58,073 nt of DNA from a phage: the sequence record PZ445420.1; one strand, 5' to 3'. The position numbers were made by a program, and so were the translations under genes. Positions 21,450-30,898 of this stretch are shown here, piece after piece. Numbering within the stretch: the first letter of the stretch is position 1; each line of letters begins with the position of its first letter. The notes under the pieces are model-generated. The model searched no databases. It had not been told where the DNA came from and saw only the letters and a program-made list of their open reading frames with translations.

Positions 21450-23423
21450 TTAAGCGGCGTATGCGAGTTTTTCCAGCAATTTTTCCGCTTTAGCTATGTA
21501 CACTTCGTGGTTGAGATCTGGCGGTAACTGGTCAGTGAGTTCCATCATAGGTTTACCCCCTGCTGTCTTACCAACACGACCCCCACTCTTGACTATCAGT
21601 ATTTCAGGTACTTCTTCTTTTGTATAGTACCAGCGAACAACCTTACCTAATGGCTCACTATTCCATGCAGCGCCACCGTTAGCTGTCTTGATACAAACAA
21701 ACTTACGAATGTCCTGACACTCTATGATAGTTTTAGCAATTGGCGTACCGTCACGAAGCAGATTAACAACTGCATCCATAATGATCTCACCTTCTGCGTT
21801 TTTAGCAAGACCTGTCTCTGCGAACCAACCCTTACGTTTGGCTTTACCATCTGCTTTGATTGCGACGTAATTGTTAACGTTTGCAGAGTTAAGACGCAGG
21901 TACTGGTTCAGTTCCATTTCAAAGCCAGTTGTCTCTTCCCACCACTTGATGATATCAGTCATTAATTGCTTCTTAGCTTTGCAAGGTTTAATAACGATAC
22001 CATCCGTATTAGCACTAACGACCTGAATACCATTAAGCTCTAGTGTCTCAATGAGCATAAGTAGAGCTAACTGACCTGTGAGTGTAGTCTGAATAATAAG
22101 GTGCGGTGCATACAGAATAGAGAACGGTGAACCGAACTTACCATAGGAACCGTTGATAACGATCTTAAGAGTTTGTGCGGTCTTATCGTCATGAGCCATC
22201 TTAGCTGCAATACGTCGTTCTACGATCTTAACGAAGATATCTATAAATCGCGGGCCCAGGTGCTCAGGATACAGTTGCTGGTTAATGATACAGATCGGGT
22301 AGTATGACGTTACGTCAGCGTCCCACATCTCTTCATCTTCAGATGGTACAATCTCCATTAACTCTTCGCACGAGTGCAGACCACCGATACCCATGTTGTA
22401 GGTTGTCTGATTGATTGTAAACTTCAAAGAGTTCATTGTAGATGGTTGCTTAATTTTACCATCTTCTGCAACTCTGAAGTAACTGTCGAGCACCACCTGA
22501 AATACAGACTTCATTAGTGGCGTTTGGAAACCTAACCACACTGGAGGATTGTACCTAAAGGTTCTACCGACTTCCACCATCCCTTTCTGTGGTACGAAGC
22601 CCAGCATTTCCTTCATCTCATGACGGATTACAGCTTCTGCAATCTGTGCATCAGATTTAGAGCGAAGATCTACTTTATACTCTTCACTCATAATCTCACG
22701 TAGATGGATCTGTTCTTCCAGCGAGTTAAACAGTGCCATTGTTGTATCGAGGTCGTTAATACAGTAGAAACGCACAATAGCAATCTGTTCCATGGACAGC
22801 GCCCAATGCGGTGGGAACGGTAAGTCCTGGAGCTTCTTCATGTGCATACGGCCACCGTACAGCTTCAGTGAACCGAAGCCAGGAGCTACTTCCTGAACGT
22901 CAATGTGGTCAATCCAAAACTGTTTCACACCAAAACTGTTAAGAATGTCCCACGGAGCCCACTCTTCCTGGATCATCCTGTCACTTGCTTCTTTTAGCTT
23001 GTCGACAGTTAAACCAGCAATGGCAAGGAATGTCATCGTATTATCATAGTTTCTTGAGTTGAAACCAACGGTACGAAAGTTCTTCATTATCCATTCATAT
23101 TTTTCCGTGTCAAGTGTCTGACCGGCAGTCATTTCTAGATAATAAACCTTACCGAACTTAACCCCTTTAAACGCCACAAGAAAATAGTTCTTATAACATT
23201 CGATATCATATACGAATGTTTCTTGTGCAAAATACATCTCCACTAATTCACCGTCTGTCATACGCGGATCGTTAGCTGCAAAACGCATTGCTGCATCAAG
23301 ACCTGGAAGGTAGTCTGGGCGCTCCCATACCCTTTCAACTGGTTGACGTTTTACTTTCTGTTTCTTCTCTTTCTTAGCGGGAGGTAAATCCTCCCAAAAA
23401 AAACCAATAGCATCTTTTCTCAT
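21450..23423 (-). CDS. DNA polymerase, family-B-like with 3'-5' exonuclease motif
   Basis: 657 aa; Exo I-like YDIEC; motif A-like DADVTSYYP; motif B-like KIVINGSYGKFG; motif C variant SANTDG. Confidence 0.6.
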   Translation of the reverse strand: MRKDAIGFFWEDLPPAKKEKKQKVKRQPVERVWERPDYLPGLDAAMRFAANDPRMTDGELVEMYFAQETFVYDIECYKNYFLVAFKGVKFGKVYYLEMTAGQTLDTEKYEWIMKNFRTVGFNSRNYDNTMTFLAIAGLTVDKLKEASDRMIQEEWAPWDILNSFGVKQFWIDHIDVQEVAPGFGSLKLYGGRMHMKKLQDLPFPPHWALSMEQIAIVRFYCINDLDTTMALFNSLEEQIHLREIMSEEYKVDLRSKSDAQIAEAVIRHEMKEMLGFVPQKGMVEVGRTFRYNPPVWLGFQTPLMKSVFQVVLDSYFRVAEDGKIKQPSTMNSLKFTINQTTYNMGIGGLHSCEELMEIVPSEDEEMWDADVTSYYPICIINQQLYPEHLGPRFIDIFVKIVERRIAAKMAHDDKTAQTLKIVINGSYGKFGSPFSILYAPHLIIQTTLTGQLALLMLIETLELNGIQVVSANTDGIVIKPCKAKKQLMTDIIKWWEETTGFEMELNQYLRLNSANVNNYVAIKADGKAKRKGWFAETGLAKNAEGEIIMDAVVNLLRDGTPIAKTIIECQDIRKFVCIKTANGGAAWNSEPLGKVVRWYYTKEEVPEILIVKSGGRVGKTAGGKPMMELTDQLPPDLNHEVYIAKAEKLLEKLAYAA

Positions 23424-24412
23424 AGACGAAATCCTACAATTACCCCACGTAGATTTTCACCATAAAAAATAATAGGAGTTGAAAGACCCCTTTCGTCCTT
23501 TTCATTGAAACGAGAGGCATCCCAGTCCGTTGCAAGTCCTTTCAACTGCATAATAAGATCTATATTATACACGCCAATTGACTTGGATTCACGGAACATT
23601 GCACTAGCACCGTCCAGCTCGTTGTAATGGGTACGCACAACACCATTTTCCATATAAATACGCCCATCGCGTTCACAGAACGGTTTTATTTTCTCTAAGC
23701 AGTTAAAAAGCTCAGTATCAAGCGTATAGACGTTAGACCCCTTTTCTGTACGCTCAATTATCTTGTCAATGTTGGGCCACTTTAATTCCAGCAATTGGGT
23801 ACGCAACCAGCAACCGTCTTCGTAATGAAATGTCATACTGGTATCTGTACATTGAATTCTTACTGGTGGCTTTTTAATGCGCAATAGCTCCTTGATGGCC
23901 ATACGTGGCACAACACAATCTACAGGGAATACAGCGCCGAACCAATACTGTATAATACTAGCGTTGTTGGTCGCGTACATGCTGCCCTGTTTTACCAGCA
24001 CGCCGCAAGACCACGGGCGGGAAGCATCGTCGCTTATAAACGGCGTTACGCGGCTTAAACCGTTGAGAAAAAGCTGACCGTCTATTTCGTGAATTGTTCC
24101 TTCTGGCTCTACGTGTGCAGTTGGTTTCTGAAGAGTATCCACACTGACCTTAAAGCCACCAGACTTAATGCTCAACTTACCGTTCGCTAACATTGTCATC
24201 TGTACAGCTTCGTCACATGCTGCAATAGCCTTGAGCATCGGTTCAGCTTTCGGTGTACAGTCAATGTTCAGTGGTACTGGACTACATAATGAAATAGTTC
24301 CGTTGAACCCGCGCACAGTACCGTCGACAATACGGAAGTGAGTTAAACCTTCCTGGAGTTCTTTCTTAGCTACAGAACCCTGAACAAACTTTAAAGCATC
24401 AAGTAAATCCAT
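23420..24412 (-). CDS. hypothetical protein adjacent to DpdA-like gene
   Basis: 330-aa ORF translationally coupled to polymerase gene; contains SGGF segment; no confident assignment. Confidence 0.4.
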   Translation of the reverse strand: MDLLDALKFVQGSVAKKELQEGLTHFRIVDGTVRGFNGTISLCSPVPLNIDCTPKAEPMLKAIAACDEAVQMTMLANGKLSIKSGGFKVSVDTLQKPTAHVEPEGTIHEIDGQLFLNGLSRVTPFISDDASRPWSCGVLVKQGSMYATNNASIIQYWFGAVFPVDCVVPRMAIKELLRIKKPPVRIQCTDTSMTFHYEDGCWLRTQLLELKWPNIDKIIERTEKGSNVYTLDTELFNCLEKIKPFCERDGRIYMENGVVRTHYNELDGASAMFRESKSIGVYNIDLIMQLKGLATDWDASRFNEKDERGLSTPIIFYGENLRGVIVGFRL

Positions 24413-24420
24413 AAGTAACC

Positions 24421-25374
24421 TTACTCGTCAAATAAATCCTGGAGACGTTCGTTGAACTTCCCATTGTGGTTAGCAAGAATCATAGCGTTGACCACACCAT
24501 ACGCCCATAAATTGTATGCAGCGCGTGATTCGTATATCGTTGAAAGTCGCTCGTATGTGAAACCTGACTCCTCTAAGTAGCGTAGAACGTTATTCTGTTC
24601 TACTTCTGAAAGATTACAGATATGTTGCCCTTGATAGTGACGTGATGGAGACTTTTCGGACACCTGCATTGGACCCCACTTAGGCGTCTCAATAGCACCG
24701 AACGCCGCAGATTGAATCCAGGAGGATGAGTCACAGGAGTACCACGGGTAACGCTCCATAAGTGGGCGGGACGTAATACCAAAGCCATGGACTTTGATCT
24801 TAGCTCGACCACTACCGTCTACAAGGTGTTTATCCCATACCCTGTCTAGCCATACCTGAAGTTGTTGTGTACTCGCTCCAACAAGACCACCGAGAGTGAT
24901 ATATTCATAATTTCGTACATAATGGTCCAGGTATTCAAAAGGTTCACCCGCGTGGAAGCATGGTAAAGGTCTTACACCTCTGGCTTCCATCTCTTCCTGG
25001 TTACGCCATGTTTGAAGTGGATCACCGATACCATCGAGTACGGACGCCATAAGTGAACCATCCTCTACACGAATGATATCTATGTTTCGTTGGATGTAAT
25101 CACAGTATTCTTTAACTGATAACGTAACTCCCAAAGTGTAAGCTGAGAACGCTCCGGAGTCGAGGAATATCTTGGCCCCATCGGCACGCATGGCATCAAC
25201 ATATGATTGCTTTCCAACGTAATGGTAGGACTCAAGAATGTTTGGAATATTCTCGACAACACGTTTTTCTTGTTCGTTGAGTTTGACATAGCGGTTCATT
25301 CCTGGTTTATAGCTGTTCGTATATACGGCAGCCATATAAATCTGAAAGGTATAGTCGATATCTTGTCTGTGCAT
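24421..25374 (-). CDS. dpdA: DpdA-like 7-deazaguanine DNA transglycosylase (TGT-superfamily candidate)
   Basis: 317 aa; FLDSGAFS segment resembles TGT catalytic DSGGFQ region; immediately downstream of folE/queD/queC/queE genes. Confidence 0.45.
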   Translation of the reverse strand: MHRQDIDYTFQIYMAAVYTNSYKPGMNRYVKLNEQEKRVVENIPNILESYHYVGKQSYVDAMRADGAKIFLDSGAFSAYTLGVTLSVKEYCDYIQRNIDIIRVEDGSLMASVLDGIGDPLQTWRNQEEMEARGVRPLPCFHAGEPFEYLDHYVRNYEYITLGGLVGASTQQLQVWLDRVWDKHLVDGSGRAKIKVHGFGITSRPLMERYPWYSCDSSSWIQSAAFGAIETPKWGPMQVSEKSPSRHYQGQHICNLSEVEQNNVLRYLEESGFTYERLSTIYESRAAYNLWAYGVVNAMILANHNGKFNERLQDLFDE

Positions 25375-25443
25375 TGTTCACCTAACAAATAAGCGCCCGT
25401 AGGCGCTTATTATATTAAAGATAATGTATGATTCGCAAATCAG

Positions 25444-26079
25444 TTACTTTTTACACGCTTCAAGAAATTCCCGACGCCATGTGTCACCAGTTACATCAGG
25501 TAATACACAATCGCCCAATGCAGTACGCCCACGGAATGCTTTAGTAACGGTTGAGCTTCCACACACTTGTTTAACACCGCGCGACTCCATGCACATATGT
25601 TTTGCATCGATGTAAACACATACAGCTTTCGGGTCTAAGTGTTCTACGATAGCATCCGCAATCTGGTTAGTCAGACGCTCCTGAACTTGCAAACGACGGC
25701 TAAAAGCATCAACCACGCGAGACAGTTTACTAAGACCCACGATGCGACCGTTAGGAACATACCCCACGACAGCGTGACCGATAATAGGAGCCATATGATG
25801 CTCACAATGGCTATAAACTGGAATATCGCGAACGATAACCATTTCATCGCAGTTTTCCCCACCATCTTCAAATGTCTTGAACAGAGATGCAATATCAGTA
25901 TTGTAACCACCGAACCACGTCTCAAATGCTTTAGCAACACGTTCAGGTGTTTCTTCTAACCCTGGACGAAGAGGACCAAAATCATTTTCTTCAATCTGAC
26001 GAAGGATATTTTCAATGTGTTGCGCAATAACAAATTTATTCATGGTTTGCAGTTTCCTTGTGTGGTCAATTATTTGCAA
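25444..26079 (-). CDS. folE: GTP cyclohydrolase I
   Basis: 211 aa with VYSHCEHHMAP and GLSKLSRVVD motifs typical of FolE. Confidence 0.8.
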   Translation of the reverse strand: MQIIDHTRKLQTMNKFVIAQHIENILRQIEENDFGPLRPGLEETPERVAKAFETWFGGYNTDIASLFKTFEDGGENCDEMVIVRDIPVYSHCEHHMAPIIGHAVVGYVPNGRIVGLSKLSRVVDAFSRRLQVQERLTNQIADAIVEHLDPKAVCVYIDAKHMCMESRGVKQVCGSSTVTKAFRGRTALGDCVLPDVTGDTWRREFLEACKK

Positions 26080-26582
26080 TAGTTAACATGGCATTTGGAC
26101 GTTTCTTCAATGGTGCATTCTACAAGTTGAACACCATGTTCGTCAAGCAGTTGCGGACCAATTACGTTTACCATGTATGCAGCCAGGTTTTCCGCGGTTG
26201 GGTTGAATGGTAAAGCTACCAATGAGCCTAAGAAATGCTCATGGTCTTCATGTTCCAGAGGACAACTCGGGCGACTTGCTGCAATTTTCAAAGCGTCAAT
26301 CAAATTATCACGACTCCAATGCAGGAATTTATGATCCCAGTTATCTTCCAACCACTGGCAAAGCGTAGTTTTAACCACACTAAAGTCGATAACGCGACCT
26401 ACGTCGTCCAGTTGCTTAAGGGCCGCAAATTCAGCTTCGTCCATGACTTTATAAGGGACTTTTGGCGCAACCTTAAAGTGAAACTTATAGTTGTGCCCGT
26501 GCAGGTGGCGGCACTTACTCTCATGCCCAACTACACGGTGGCCAGCGCAAATTTCATGCGAACGGATTACTTCGTAGCTCAT
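26070..26582 (-). CDS. queD: 6-carboxy-5,6,7,8-tetrahydropterin synthase (QueD/PTPS family)
   Basis: 170 aa; CAGHRVVGHESKCRHLHGHNY zinc/catalytic motif typical of QueD. Confidence 0.75.
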   Translation of the reverse strand: MSYEVIRSHEICAGHRVVGHESKCRHLHGHNYKFHFKVAPKVPYKVMDEAEFAALKQLDDVGRVIDFSVVKTTLCQWLEDNWDHKFLHWSRDNLIDALKIAASRPSCPLEHEDHEHFLGSLVALPFNPTAENLAAYMVNVIGPQLLDEHGVQLVECTIEETSKCHVNYCK

Positions 26583-26827
26583 TCTGCCACCTCATAAGTC
26601 TGGGCAAAAATATCAGGTTTACACGGGTAATGCTCACCATTTACTCCTCGTATAATCCAGTCACCATTGGACGCTGTCATGACCCCTTCTAGAGTATTAA
26701 TTAATAAATTGTCGCCCATAACATGACAATCCCGCGACCCACTATTACAGAAATCGTATACTTCCTGCGTATTCAATCCAGTCCATTGAACAGCTTCAAT
26801 CACGACCGGCTTTTTACGGAATCTCAT
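26579..26827 (-). CDS. hypothetical protein
   Basis: 82-aa ORF coupled within deazaguanine cluster. Confidence 0.4.
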   Translation of the reverse strand: MRFRKKPVVIEAVQWTGLNTQEVYDFCNSGSRDCHVMGDNLLINTLEGVMTASNGDWIIRGVNGEHYPCKPDIFAQTYEVAE

Positions 26828-27228
26828 TGGGATTTCTCCACTTCAATAGCTGCTTTAATATCACGCAGTGCGCGAATTTCATGGTGCAGATAACCAGTAT
26901 CTTCTTCCACGTTTTCCGCAGCAACGCGCTCCAGGATAGTGATCAACGAATCAACGTGCGTTGACATCATATCCGCAAGGTTGGGATGACCTTTATAAAT
27001 GTCGTTCCCACTAATGCGATTATACAACGCAGCGGACGCTGATTGGTACTCCGGCCAGTCGTTAGCAATAAAAATCCCTTCGGTGACACCGCGCCCTTCA
27101 GCAACCCGCCCAAGGACAACGATGTCAGTCAGGTCTTCAATAGTCTCACGCTGGTCACGAGTGAGGTACTTTTTGACGTCATCGTTCTTAAGAACTAAGT
27201 AACGATGCTCGAAGCGTTTATCCTTCAT
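26824..27228 (-). CDS. hypothetical protein (134 aa from internal ATG of ORF 26824..27288)
   Basis: Start chosen to minimise overlap with upstream gene. Confidence 0.4.
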   Translation of the reverse strand: MKDKRFEHRYLVLKNDDVKKYLTRDQRETIEDLTDIVVLGRVAEGRGVTEGIFIANDWPEYQSASAALYNRISGNDIYKGHPNLADMMSTHVDSLITILERVAAENVEEDTGYLHHEIRALRDIKAAIEVEKSQ

Positions 27229-27487
27229 TTTCTTTCTCCATAAATTCACGGTATTTACGAACGCACTCGTCTTTACTACGGGACGCAAAACAGCGCCAAC
27301 CGTTGTCCAGCTTGTACGACCAGTAGAACGCGCCGAAACGTTTCTTCATCCGCTTAGTTACACAGACGCTCTGTTTCAGCATTGGGTTTTGAGACTTGAT
27401 AAAGGCAGCACGTTCAGCGGCAGGTAACATCTCATAGGCTTCCTTCTGCATACTGGCGTACACCGTTTCACGGAAATTCATCTTCAT
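27218..27487 (-). CDS. hypothetical protein
   Basis: 89-aa ORF inside deazaguanine cluster. Confidence 0.4.
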   Translation of the reverse strand: MKMNFRETVYASMQKEAYEMLPAAERAAFIKSQNPMLKQSVCVTKRMKKRFGAFYWSYKLDNGWRCFASRSKDECVRKYREFMEKENEG

Positions 27488-27521
27488 AAGAAGCTCCTGG
27501 ACGTCCTTGTCCGGTTGTTAG

Positions 27522-28937
27522 TTACTGTTCATCCAGATAGGTAATTACCTCTGGCGCACCATTAATACTAAATGCAGTCCGGCGCATCATGCAAGGGCCA
27601 CAAGTACCGCAATGCAAATCCCCGTTACGGTAACAGCTCCAGGTGTGCTCCAACGGGGCCCCTAAACGCAGACCTGTAGCGACAATTTCGTGCTTCATTA
27701 AGTTACCTACTGGCATAAGCACTTCAACGCGCTTACCGTCGCCTACAGCGAACGGTAACACTTGATTAAAGCGATTAATGAACTCAGGCTCATTGTCGGG
27801 GTAGGCTCCAGCTTCTTCTAGGTTGTTACCAAGAACAATATAGTCGAAACCGTTAGCTTCTGCGTATGCAGTAGCAACAGAAAGCATCACAAGGTTACGA
27901 GCTGGAACCCATTCATGCGCGAACTCAGCGCCTTCTTCACCGCCAGCAATTGTAGCATCTTGATCAAATAATGGGCTATCTTTCTTATCGTAGATCGGAA
28001 TTGGAAATTCAATTAATGGAACCCCCATCACCTCCGCAATCTTACGAATAGCGTACAGCTCATTAGTTTCTGCACGACAACCATATTGGAAGTTAATCAG
28101 AGTAACATCTAGACCATTGGACTTACATATCTGAGCTGCTACTGTGCTGTCCATACCACCACTGGCGACAACTAACGCACGTTGAGTCTGCTTATTTGGA
28201 ATAAGATCAACTTCATTGCATACATCAGTCGATGTGACCACATTACACGAATAAGGCTTCAGCATCTGCTTAATAGCACGGGTTGGTAGCATGTCTTCCT
28301 GGCTGGCGAAATACATACCAGTATCAGTCTTACCAATCCAGATTGGACGGTAATTACATGCTGCAAACACATACCCAGGAAGTGAATCGTGCGTTGCAAG
28401 GATTGCGTAACTTCCTTTCAACTTGCGAATAACTTCATGAAATACGTTATAAAGGTAATCTGAATCAGACAGACACGTTTCATCCGCTGAAAGTGTGCAT
28501 TCCGCTAACTGTTCAACAATCGCAGCACTATCAATTTTAGTCTGTAGTGCATAGGTACGAAGGTCTTTATCGTTCGCAATAGTACCGTTATGAACAATAG
28601 TCCAACCATCCATATGATACGGTTGCTGGTCCCACTCGTTCTTGTCAACGACCCACTCTGTAGTCGGTTCAGCACGAGCGTTACCAATCATTGTGAAGCT
28701 ACCAATAGCTCCAGCATGAGATACAATGCACCCAACTTTGACAGGACGTTCCAGTGATGTTTCCTTACCGACACTAACAATACGTTGCGGGTGCATACTG
28801 TGGTCACCATGCGTAAAGCGTACACCAAGACCATCACGACCACGCTTGATACTAGCTTTAATAAGATCACCAACATCGTTACGGATAATTTCACGTTCAG
28901 GTTGGCCATTAGTAATAACACCAAAGATGGAGCACAT
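27522..28937 (-). CDS. queC: glutamine amidotransferase (class II) fused to QueC-like 7-cyano-7-deazaguanine synthase (Gat-QueC)
   Basis: N-terminus MCSIFGV (Ntn class-II GATase, as in AsnB); C-terminal PP-loop SGGMDS and Cys cluster C...CGTCGPC typical of QueC. Confidence 0.75.
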   Translation of the reverse strand: MCSIFGVITNGQPEREIIRNDVGDLIKASIKRGRDGLGVRFTHGDHSMHPQRIVSVGKETSLERPVKVGCIVSHAGAIGSFTMIGNARAEPTTEWVVDKNEWDQQPYHMDGWTIVHNGTIANDKDLRTYALQTKIDSAAIVEQLAECTLSADETCLSDSDYLYNVFHEVIRKLKGSYAILATHDSLPGYVFAACNYRPIWIGKTDTGMYFASQEDMLPTRAIKQMLKPYSCNVVTSTDVCNEVDLIPNKQTQRALVVASGGMDSTVAAQICKSNGLDVTLINFQYGCRAETNELYAIRKIAEVMGVPLIEFPIPIYDKKDSPLFDQDATIAGGEEGAEFAHEWVPARNLVMLSVATAYAEANGFDYIVLGNNLEEAGAYPDNEPEFINRFNQVLPFAVGDGKRVEVLMPVGNLMKHEIVATGLRLGAPLEHTWSCYRNGDLHCGTCGPCMMRRTAFSINGAPEVITYLDEQ

Positions 28938-28938
28938 A

Positions 28939-29697
28939 TTATTTACCTTCTTTAACCATTTCAATTTCACGCTCAACGGATGCAATAATATCGTTGAGGT
29001 CTTCCAGTAAGTCTTTATGACCGCGCTCACCCGCACACAGCACTTTCTTCAGTGCATGTTGCATGGGCCCACTGGTTACATTGAATGCTTTAATTACGTC
29101 GTACACGTCAACCCACACATCAATTTCAATCGGGCTACCGTTAATGTCATGTGATTCAAAACTTTTGATTTTGCGCATATATTTATTCGGACGTGGAGCT
29201 TTAATATCCTGGATGCAATCCTTATTAACAAACGCTTCATTAACGAATAGTTCCGGCTCGCCTTCTTTGTCACGATCAACTTTAAAGACGCTCGCAAGTA
29301 CATCTTCCATGATACCAGCTAATTTTTCAGAAGAAGTTTTATGATTTTTAACCACCTCTTCCACTTCTTCCGCTTTCTGTGTCCCGCTAACAGAAGGACT
29401 AATGCGCCATTTGTAAAGCGCATTACGCGGAGGCGTTACATGCGTGTTGTAGACTGTCTTTAAGTTCATAAGATCATTTCCATCCATACCTTCAACAAAG
29501 ACAGTGAGTGCGGGACTGCTATCGTTCAGAACATCTACTAAATATCCTTCTCGAATTACAGATGCAAGAGCTGCATGGGACGCCGCTTGAGAAACTGTGG
29601 TCACATAATGTTTTACAAATCCGTCTTCATCAAACAGACACTGGTTTAACACATTTTCTGGAACAATTTGACCGAGTAATTGAATATGCTTATTCAT
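28939..29697 (-). CDS. hypothetical protein (252 aa) between queE and gat-queC
   Basis: ORF with stop adjacent to gat-queC start; no recognisable catalytic motif. Confidence 0.45.
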   Translation of the reverse strand: MNKHIQLLGQIVPENVLNQCLFDEDGFVKHYVTTVSQAASHAALASVIREGYLVDVLNDSSPALTVFVEGMDGNDLMNLKTVYNTHVTPPRNALYKWRISPSVSGTQKAEEVEEVVKNHKTSSEKLAGIMEDVLASVFKVDRDKEGEPELFVNEAFVNKDCIQDIKAPRPNKYMRKIKSFESHDINGSPIEIDVWVDVYDVIKAFNVTSGPMQHALKKVLCAGERGHKDLLEDLNDIIASVEREIEMVKEGK

Positions 29698-29814
29698 AAC
29701 GATTTACCTTATTAGTTGAACATACCGTGTCTTTTAGCGCGTTGACCGTCACCAGCATAATGATCATTAGCCGCAGCAATCATCCACGCGTTTTTGAATA
29801 TGTATAACTTCACT

Positions 29815-30069
29815 TTACACCTTAGTTAACGTCTGAGTCCAGTCTAGACCTTCAAGATCAACTTTTGCAATCTTCTCGTAATAACCAGCATCAATATCAG
29901 GAACCCAGCGACCATACTCCACATTACAACATATTGGATCGTCTTCGTAACCCATCACAGTTCCGTTTTTATCACAGGCAAGATAGGTGACCCAATTTGG
30001 AACTGTTAAGTTAATACCATGAAACTTAACAACTTTATTAGTTTTAAACAGAGCTTTTACACGCATCAC
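29815..30069 (-). CDS. hypothetical protein
   Basis: 84-aa ORF overlapping queE stop. Confidence 0.4.
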   Translation of the reverse strand: MMRVKALFKTNKVVKFHGINLTVPNWVTYLACDKNGTVMGYEDDPICCNVEYGRWVPDIDAGYYEKIAKVDLEGLDWTQTLTKV

Positions 30070-30854
30070 TCTACACCTAAATATTTGTGAATCTGCAACT
30101 GCACGATGTAATTATGCTTCATTGCGTATTTAACAACAGCTTGAGCGTTTGCTTTGTTAGCAACGTCATCTTGTTCATCCATAGGTTGAAGATAAATCTT
30201 ACCTTTAAAGTGTACAGGTGGACGTGCGATAAATGGTGTCGCACGGTGATCCAGTGCCTGCAACGGTAATCCATCTTCCTCGTTGACGTTTCCACTTTTC
30301 ATTACATATTTGAAAGCATTCGCTCGGGCGGAAACGCTAGGGTGAACCTTTGCTGCCTTAGGACTACATACTACCACACAGTTATAGTTGAGTTCACGCG
30401 GGATAGGCATAGTTCCGTTAGTTTCGACCTGTACGCGATAACCTTTCATATCAATAAGGTAATTGATAAAATTAGCAACTTCAGGTTGACGGAAAGGTTC
30501 GCCGCCAGTAATGACAACTAATTTAGTCTTAGCTTCACCAGTAACACGGACAATCTCTTGCCAAATATCCCTGTGGTTCATCCTCTTACGATTGGACGTG
30601 TAGTTTGTGTCACACCCTGGGCATTGCAGATTACAACCAGCTAATCGAACAAATACGGCAGGTTGACCACAAAATGGGCCTTCGCCTTGAATGGTATGAA
30701 AAATGGAATGCACGTCAAGAATACCACGTTCACGAACTAGCTTCTCAGGTTCCTGAGTATTAATAATTTTCATATGATTTCCAAATTTGACTTGAGCCCA
30801 GTGGTGGGCGATAATGGCTTGTGCAAACATTTGAACCTCGGGGTAAGATAACAA
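30066..30854 (-). CDS. queE: 7-carboxy-7-deazaguanine synthase (radical SAM)
   Basis: 262 aa; CNLQCPGC (CX3CX2C radical-SAM cluster motif); cluster context. Confidence 0.75.
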   Translation of the reverse strand: MLSYPEVQMFAQAIIAHHWAQVKFGNHMKIINTQEPEKLVRERGILDVHSIFHTIQGEGPFCGQPAVFVRLAGCNLQCPGCDTNYTSNRKRMNHRDIWQEIVRVTGEAKTKLVVITGGEPFRQPEVANFINYLIDMKGYRVQVETNGTMPIPRELNYNCVVVCSPKAAKVHPSVSARANAFKYVMKSGNVNEEDGLPLQALDHRATPFIARPPVHFKGKIYLQPMDEQDDVANKANAQAVVKYAMKHNYIVQLQIHKYLGVE

Positions 30855-30898
30855 AGGGGCAGTAAATGCCCCTTCTGAGTTTCCGAAGTATCTACAGA

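Follow-up and report, generated by a model that had tools for sequence, protein, structure and literature searches.

The minus-strand genes next to the DNA polymerase gene of phage record PZ445420.1 raise two questions: which base they would install in the phage DNA, and whether the six open reading frames (ORFs) embedded among them take part in making it. We analyzed the whole stretch of 58,073 nucleotides, referred to here as the window, and consider it very probable that the cluster is the dG+ (deoxyarchaeosine) hypermodification module of Nonagvirus, with the six embedded ORFs as passenger or accessory genes dispensable for the chemistry.

Genomic setting of the cluster

Judged by its sequence, the window is a Nonagvirus genome (9g-like siphovirus), with nucleotide identities of ~94% to Escherichia phage FritzHoffmann and ~90% to phage 9g; its first 25 kb match Nonagvirus genomes at 94-96%. 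Five pathway genes lie on the minus strand, interleaved with the six ORFs (82, 134, 89, 252, 33 and 83 aa) and following the polymerase and clamp genes:

DNA polymerase gene, 21450-23423; adjoins the clamp gene, beside dpdA
Clamp gene, 23420-24412; directly beside dpdA
dpdA, 24421..25374, minus strand; predicted DNA guanine transglycosylase, phage DpdA1 type, exchanging G in dsDNA for a 7-deazaguanine base; motif FLDSGAFS at 25144-25167
folE, 25444..26043, minus strand; predicted GTP cyclohydrolase I, first step (GTP to H2NTP); motif CEHH at 25795-25806
queD, 26070..26582, minus strand; predicted 6-carboxy-tetrahydropterin (CPH4) synthase; motif CRHLHGH at 26493-26513
gat-queC, 27522..28937, minus strand; predicted class-II glutamine amidotransferase-QueC fusion, CDG to preQ0 plus the archaeosine amidino group; Met-Cys N-terminus MCSIFGV at 28917-28937, PP-loop SGGMDS at 28146-28163, Cys cluster CYRNGDLHCGTCGPC at 27591-27635
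queE, 30066..30830, minus strand; predicted radical-SAM 7-carboxy-7-deazaguanine (CDG) synthase; motif CNLQCPGC at 30612-30635
GC-rich terminator-like hairpin, 30853..30875, minus strand; from a pattern scan, between an upstream 274-aa gene and queE

The first-pass annotation had named these five genes, their strand, their place beside the DNA polymerase and their motifs, and all were found where it put them. Its span of 24421-30854 holds at the 24421 end and is corrected at the other to 30830, the most likely start of queE. Indeed, the longest-ORF starts lie too far upstream for three genes, gat-queC, folE and queE. The gat-queC start is the ATG at 28937, which gives the MCS... terminus that a class-II amidotransferase needs and leaves the gene clear of orf252. 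For folE, the most probable start is 26043, as annotated in FritzHoffmann and with a ribosome-binding site upstream. Because terminator-like hairpins are no more numerous in the region than expected from shuffling, the hairpin at 30853..30875 is a candidate transcription-unit boundary only.

The closest record, FritzHoffmann (Bas20, MZ501068), is 94% identical across 100% of the region, labels DpdA, FolE, QueD, Gat-QueC and QueE, and has counterparts of all six embedded ORFs, 94-100% identical at the protein level. It differs at the dpdA/folE junction, where an additional 164-aa HNH-like gene takes the place of the 69-nt gap in the window, and the nucleotide identity is uneven, at 99.5-100% for orf82 and orf134 versus 92-94% for dpdA and queE. 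Identity to 9g and other Nonagvirus phages is ~90% across ~80% of the cluster. In the 9g dG+ system (Queuovirinae), all five genes recur with order, strand and place beside the clamp and DNA polymerase genes unchanged, at protein identities of 99% (DpdA), 98% (QueE), 94% (Gat-QueC), 86% (FolE) and 73% (QueD). Between gat-queC and queE, 9g holds only 9g_00007, the counterpart of orf252 (83% identical), and its queD/gat-queC interval is empty, whereas the window has five extra small ORFs (orf82, orf134, orf89, orf33 and orf84).

A predicted route to deoxyarchaeosine

In profile searches (Pfam, NCBIfam), a check proposed in the first-pass annotation, four of the pathway's five proteins score above curated cut-offs. 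FolE matches PF01227 (E=4e-63) and TIGR00063 (194 bits against a cut-off of 181.6), and QueD matches PF01242 (76 bits against 22.4) and phrog_2389 (E=1e-53). For Gat-QueC, the QueC domain matches PF06508 (E=1.8e-55) and TIGR00364 (151.1 bits against 150.3), the amidotransferase part matches GATase_7 (28.2 bits against 25), and phrog_10428 is matched at E=8e-279. QueE exceeds the Radical_SAM cut-off (PF04055, 44.7 bits against 29.5) and matches phrog_2076 (E=9e-70); its top NCBIfam matches are all QueE models, yet fall under their equivalog cut-offs.

DpdA is the exception: no Pfam model, TGT and DpdA included, and no NCBIfam model matched it, and the zinc site of bacterial DpdA, CXCX2CX22H, is absent. 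Because of this, its putative assignment rests on near-identity to the 9g DpdA, on a PHROG match (phrog_887, E=1e-98) and on motif conservation. An alignment of 42 family members shows complete or near-complete invariance at D72, F76, D114, G162, G163, F198 and D215. Furthermore, a weak profile match to the S. Montevideo DpdA (7ui4) sets G162/G163 on G206/G207 and D215 on D256, the nucleophile of that enzyme (PMC10164549).

In the proposed pathway, FolE would convert GTP to H2NTP, QueD would convert H2NTP to CPH4, the radical-SAM enzyme QueE would form CDG, and the QueC domain of Gat-QueC would convert CDG to preQ0. The glutamine-amidotransferase domain of the fusion would supply the ammonia by which the nitrile becomes the archaeosine formamidine, on either the free base or DNA. 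DpdA, a TGT-like transglycosylase, would act on phage DNA that is double-stranded and already replicated, taking out guanine and putting in the deazaguanine base. For FolE, QueD, QueE, the QueC domain and DpdA, these presumed steps draw on family membership and on published tests of the near-identical 9g proteins. Indeed, folE, queD and queE of 9g each complement the matching E. coli mutant, 9g dpdA by itself gives low-level dPreQ0 in plasmid DNA, and 9g dpdA and gat-queC suffice in E. coli for dG+ at 9-18% of G, without orf252 (PMC6884629). The earlier proposal of a 7-deazaguanine cluster, in which Gat-QueC points to an amido/amidino form, is right in its core: the fusion indicates the amidino form, archaeosine (dG+), and the locus matches the 9g system almost protein for protein (PMC6884629).

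The six embedded ORFs

The six ORFs that were left without assignment inside the cluster do lack one, all being hypothetical proteins in the FritzHoffmann record:

orf82, 26579..26827, minus strand; 82 aa, small accessory gene resembling PGDYG proteins
orf134, 26824..27228, minus strand; 134 aa, helical, in Nonagvirus-like phages only, keeping its position in the gat-queC/queD interval
orf89, 27218..27487, minus strand; 89 aa, small, nearly restricted to Queuovirinae-type phages
orf252, 28939..29697, minus strand; 252 aa, two-domain protein between queE and gat-queC
orf33, 29712..29813, minus strand; 33 codons, GTG start, upstream AAGGTG Shine-Dalgarno
orf84, 29815..30066, minus strand; 83 aa from ATG, common small-phage-protein family

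They overlap their neighbours by 1-11 nt or are separated by short gaps; this tight packing, on the same strand as the pathway genes, makes co-transcription with those genes probable. Their distribution makes them look like variable passengers rather than extra pathway steps. For orf82, phrog_419 is matched at E=5e-37 and Pfam PGDYG at just E=0.21, and 1064 phage records, spread over many host groups (Mycobacterium, Bacillus, Staphylococcus and others), contain a homologue. FritzHoffmann holds the sole near-identical copy, with 100% nucleotide identity versus 92-94% for the flanking core genes, and orf82 looks like a passenger outside the pathway. A sporadic passenger is also the likely status of orf33, annotated in FritzHoffmann (97% identical) and PD328 (79%) and not present in 9g. 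A family match links orf84 to phrog_1972 (E=1e-22); Seuratvirus has a 52% identical copy likewise adjoining queE, paralogues lie at other sites in Nonagvirus genomes, in jumbo phages and in further unrelated phages, and 9g has no copy at the corresponding position. Carriers of orf89 amount to only 11 phage records and 10 database clusters, with syntenic copies in contigs L004, L006 and L007 (87%, 69% and 52% identical) and copies in Seuratvirus (41-45% identical), that of ECP2304 directly beside queD; the gene is absent from 9g and gave no match in Pfam and PHROG searches.

A closer tie to modification might be sought in orf252, which sits in the queE/gat-queC interval in every Nonagvirus examined and has homologues of 36-39% identity at the same position in the diverged contigs L006 and L007. 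Its AlphaFold2 model shows two domains, N-terminal (1-100) and C-terminal (167-252), joined by a disordered linker (103-166). The N-terminal domain is lineage-specific and stands by itself at the queE/gat-queC position in Klebsiella phage K9PH25C2, and the C-terminal domain recurs inside the CAjan cluster. Furthermore, orf252 diverges faster than its neighbours (38% identity versus 90% for DpdA in the same contigs). On these grounds orf252, possibly with orf89 and orf134, could be a lineage-specific accessory coupled to modification and not needed for the chemistry, with possible roles in DpdA level or targeting, in support of the guanine-nucleotide pool or in countering sensors of deazaguanine DNA. 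The C-terminal domain resembles DUF3310 models in BFVD by predicted fold only, and DUF3310 is part of T7 gp1.7, which carries a nucleotide-kinase annotation; host glycosylases attacking 9g DNA have been reported (bioRxiv 10.1101/2025.10.29.685425), so that counter-defence is conceivable. However, the DUF3310 link fails by sequence, both in Pfam and by hhalign against T7 gp1.7, and 755 phage records contain the C-terminal domain, most of them from groups not so far known for deazaguanine modification. Vertical inheritance by itself can keep a gene in place within one viral lineage, orf252 is missing in four other Gat-QueC genera, and reconstitution succeeds without it. We regard such a coupled role as unlikely.

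The stronger proposal of the first-pass annotation, that at least one of the six ORFs is a further tailoring enzyme or insertion factor, so that the base would go beyond dG+ or DpdA would need a partner, fares worse. Strand, packing and probable co-transcription would fit it, as would the retained position of orf252, orf89 and orf134 across diverged Nonagvirus-like lineages in which Gat-QueC is just 60-65% identical. Nevertheless, 9g, with orf252 alone, makes dG+ without five of the six (PMC6884629), and dpdA and gat-queC are sufficient in E. coli. In Vid5, NP1, BA3 and PSTCR7, the order queE, gat-queC, queD, folE, dpdA, clamp, polymerase is kept, and no homologue of any of the six was found within 6 kb either side of gat-queC. 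None of the six has an enzyme-family match in Pfam, NCBIfam or PADLOC, and the models of orf134 (a helical hairpin) and orf252 (small, with a disordered linker between its two domains) gave no significant match to any solved enzyme; the breadth of orf82 across phages also argues against the proposal. For dG+ formation the proposal is already largely refuted, and overall it is very unlikely. The reading of the six ORFs as dispensable passengers or accessories is preferred.

The modified base and its target

Related systems differ in product. In the Seuratvirus CAjan dPreQ0 system, dpdA, folE, queD and queE are 64-79% identical with their order kept, and the orf252 C-terminal domain and an orf134 C-terminal segment have counterparts within the cluster; CAjan, however, has a plain QueC lacking the Gat domain, hence its product dPreQ0, and a putative preQ0 transporter that the window lacks. 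The bacterial Dpd system (DpdA/DpdB/DpdC; 7ui4) shares the chemistry, a transglycosylase exchanging DNA G for preQ0, and the active-site motifs DSG..F, GG and xDSS in the same order. In contrast, the phage DpdA has 317 aa versus 436 residues in the crystallised chain and lacks the zinc site, and the final phage base would be dG+ rather than dPreQ0 or dADG. PF23859 found nothing significant in the phage DpdA family (one of 42 members, E=0.042), and a PADLOC scan of seven cluster proteins returned no Dpd-model match. Archaeal Gat-QueC has the same fusion architecture and forms one similarity cluster with the phage proteins (PMC6884629), but its target is tRNA, via arcTGT, whereas the phage target is DNA, via DpdA.

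Since dpdA alone inserts preQ0, the DNA product could in principle be dPreQ0 or dADG, with the amidotransferase half of Gat-QueC inactive. This is highly improbable: the protein shares 94% identity with the 9g enzyme, which is active, it retains the Met-Cys N-terminus, the PP-loop, the Cys cluster and a GATase_7 score that exceeds the cut-off, and the gat-queC dN/dS of 0.075 versus FritzHoffmann indicates purifying selection. That the genes form an auxiliary metabolic module for host tRNA queuosine, with no DNA modification, can be set aside almost entirely, for although the precursors of tRNA queuosine are made by FolE, QueD, QueE and QueC, and DpdA goes under 'queuine tRNA-ribosyltransferase' in several database labels, 9g dpdA fails to complement E. 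coli delta-tgt and places preQ0 or dG+ in DNA (PMC6884629), and CAjan loses its DNA modification when dpdA is deleted (published deletion).

The interpretation of the locus as a 7-deazaguanine/dG+ cluster is correct and already known from 9g, because the 9g experiments are published and the 9g proteins are near-identical. By analogy, we infer that dG+ is present in the DNA of the PZ445420.1 phage. In 9g virion DNA, dG+ makes up ~25% of G (PMC10516641; PMC10484667), 9g DNA is resistant to EcoRI, BamHI, EcoRV and SwaI (PMC6884629), and phages of the genus Nonagvirus, to which FritzHoffmann belongs, withstand restriction-modification of types I and II in vivo (PMC8594841). The present phage would likewise be expected to have part of its G replaced (about a quarter in 9g), which would block many restriction enzymes of both types.

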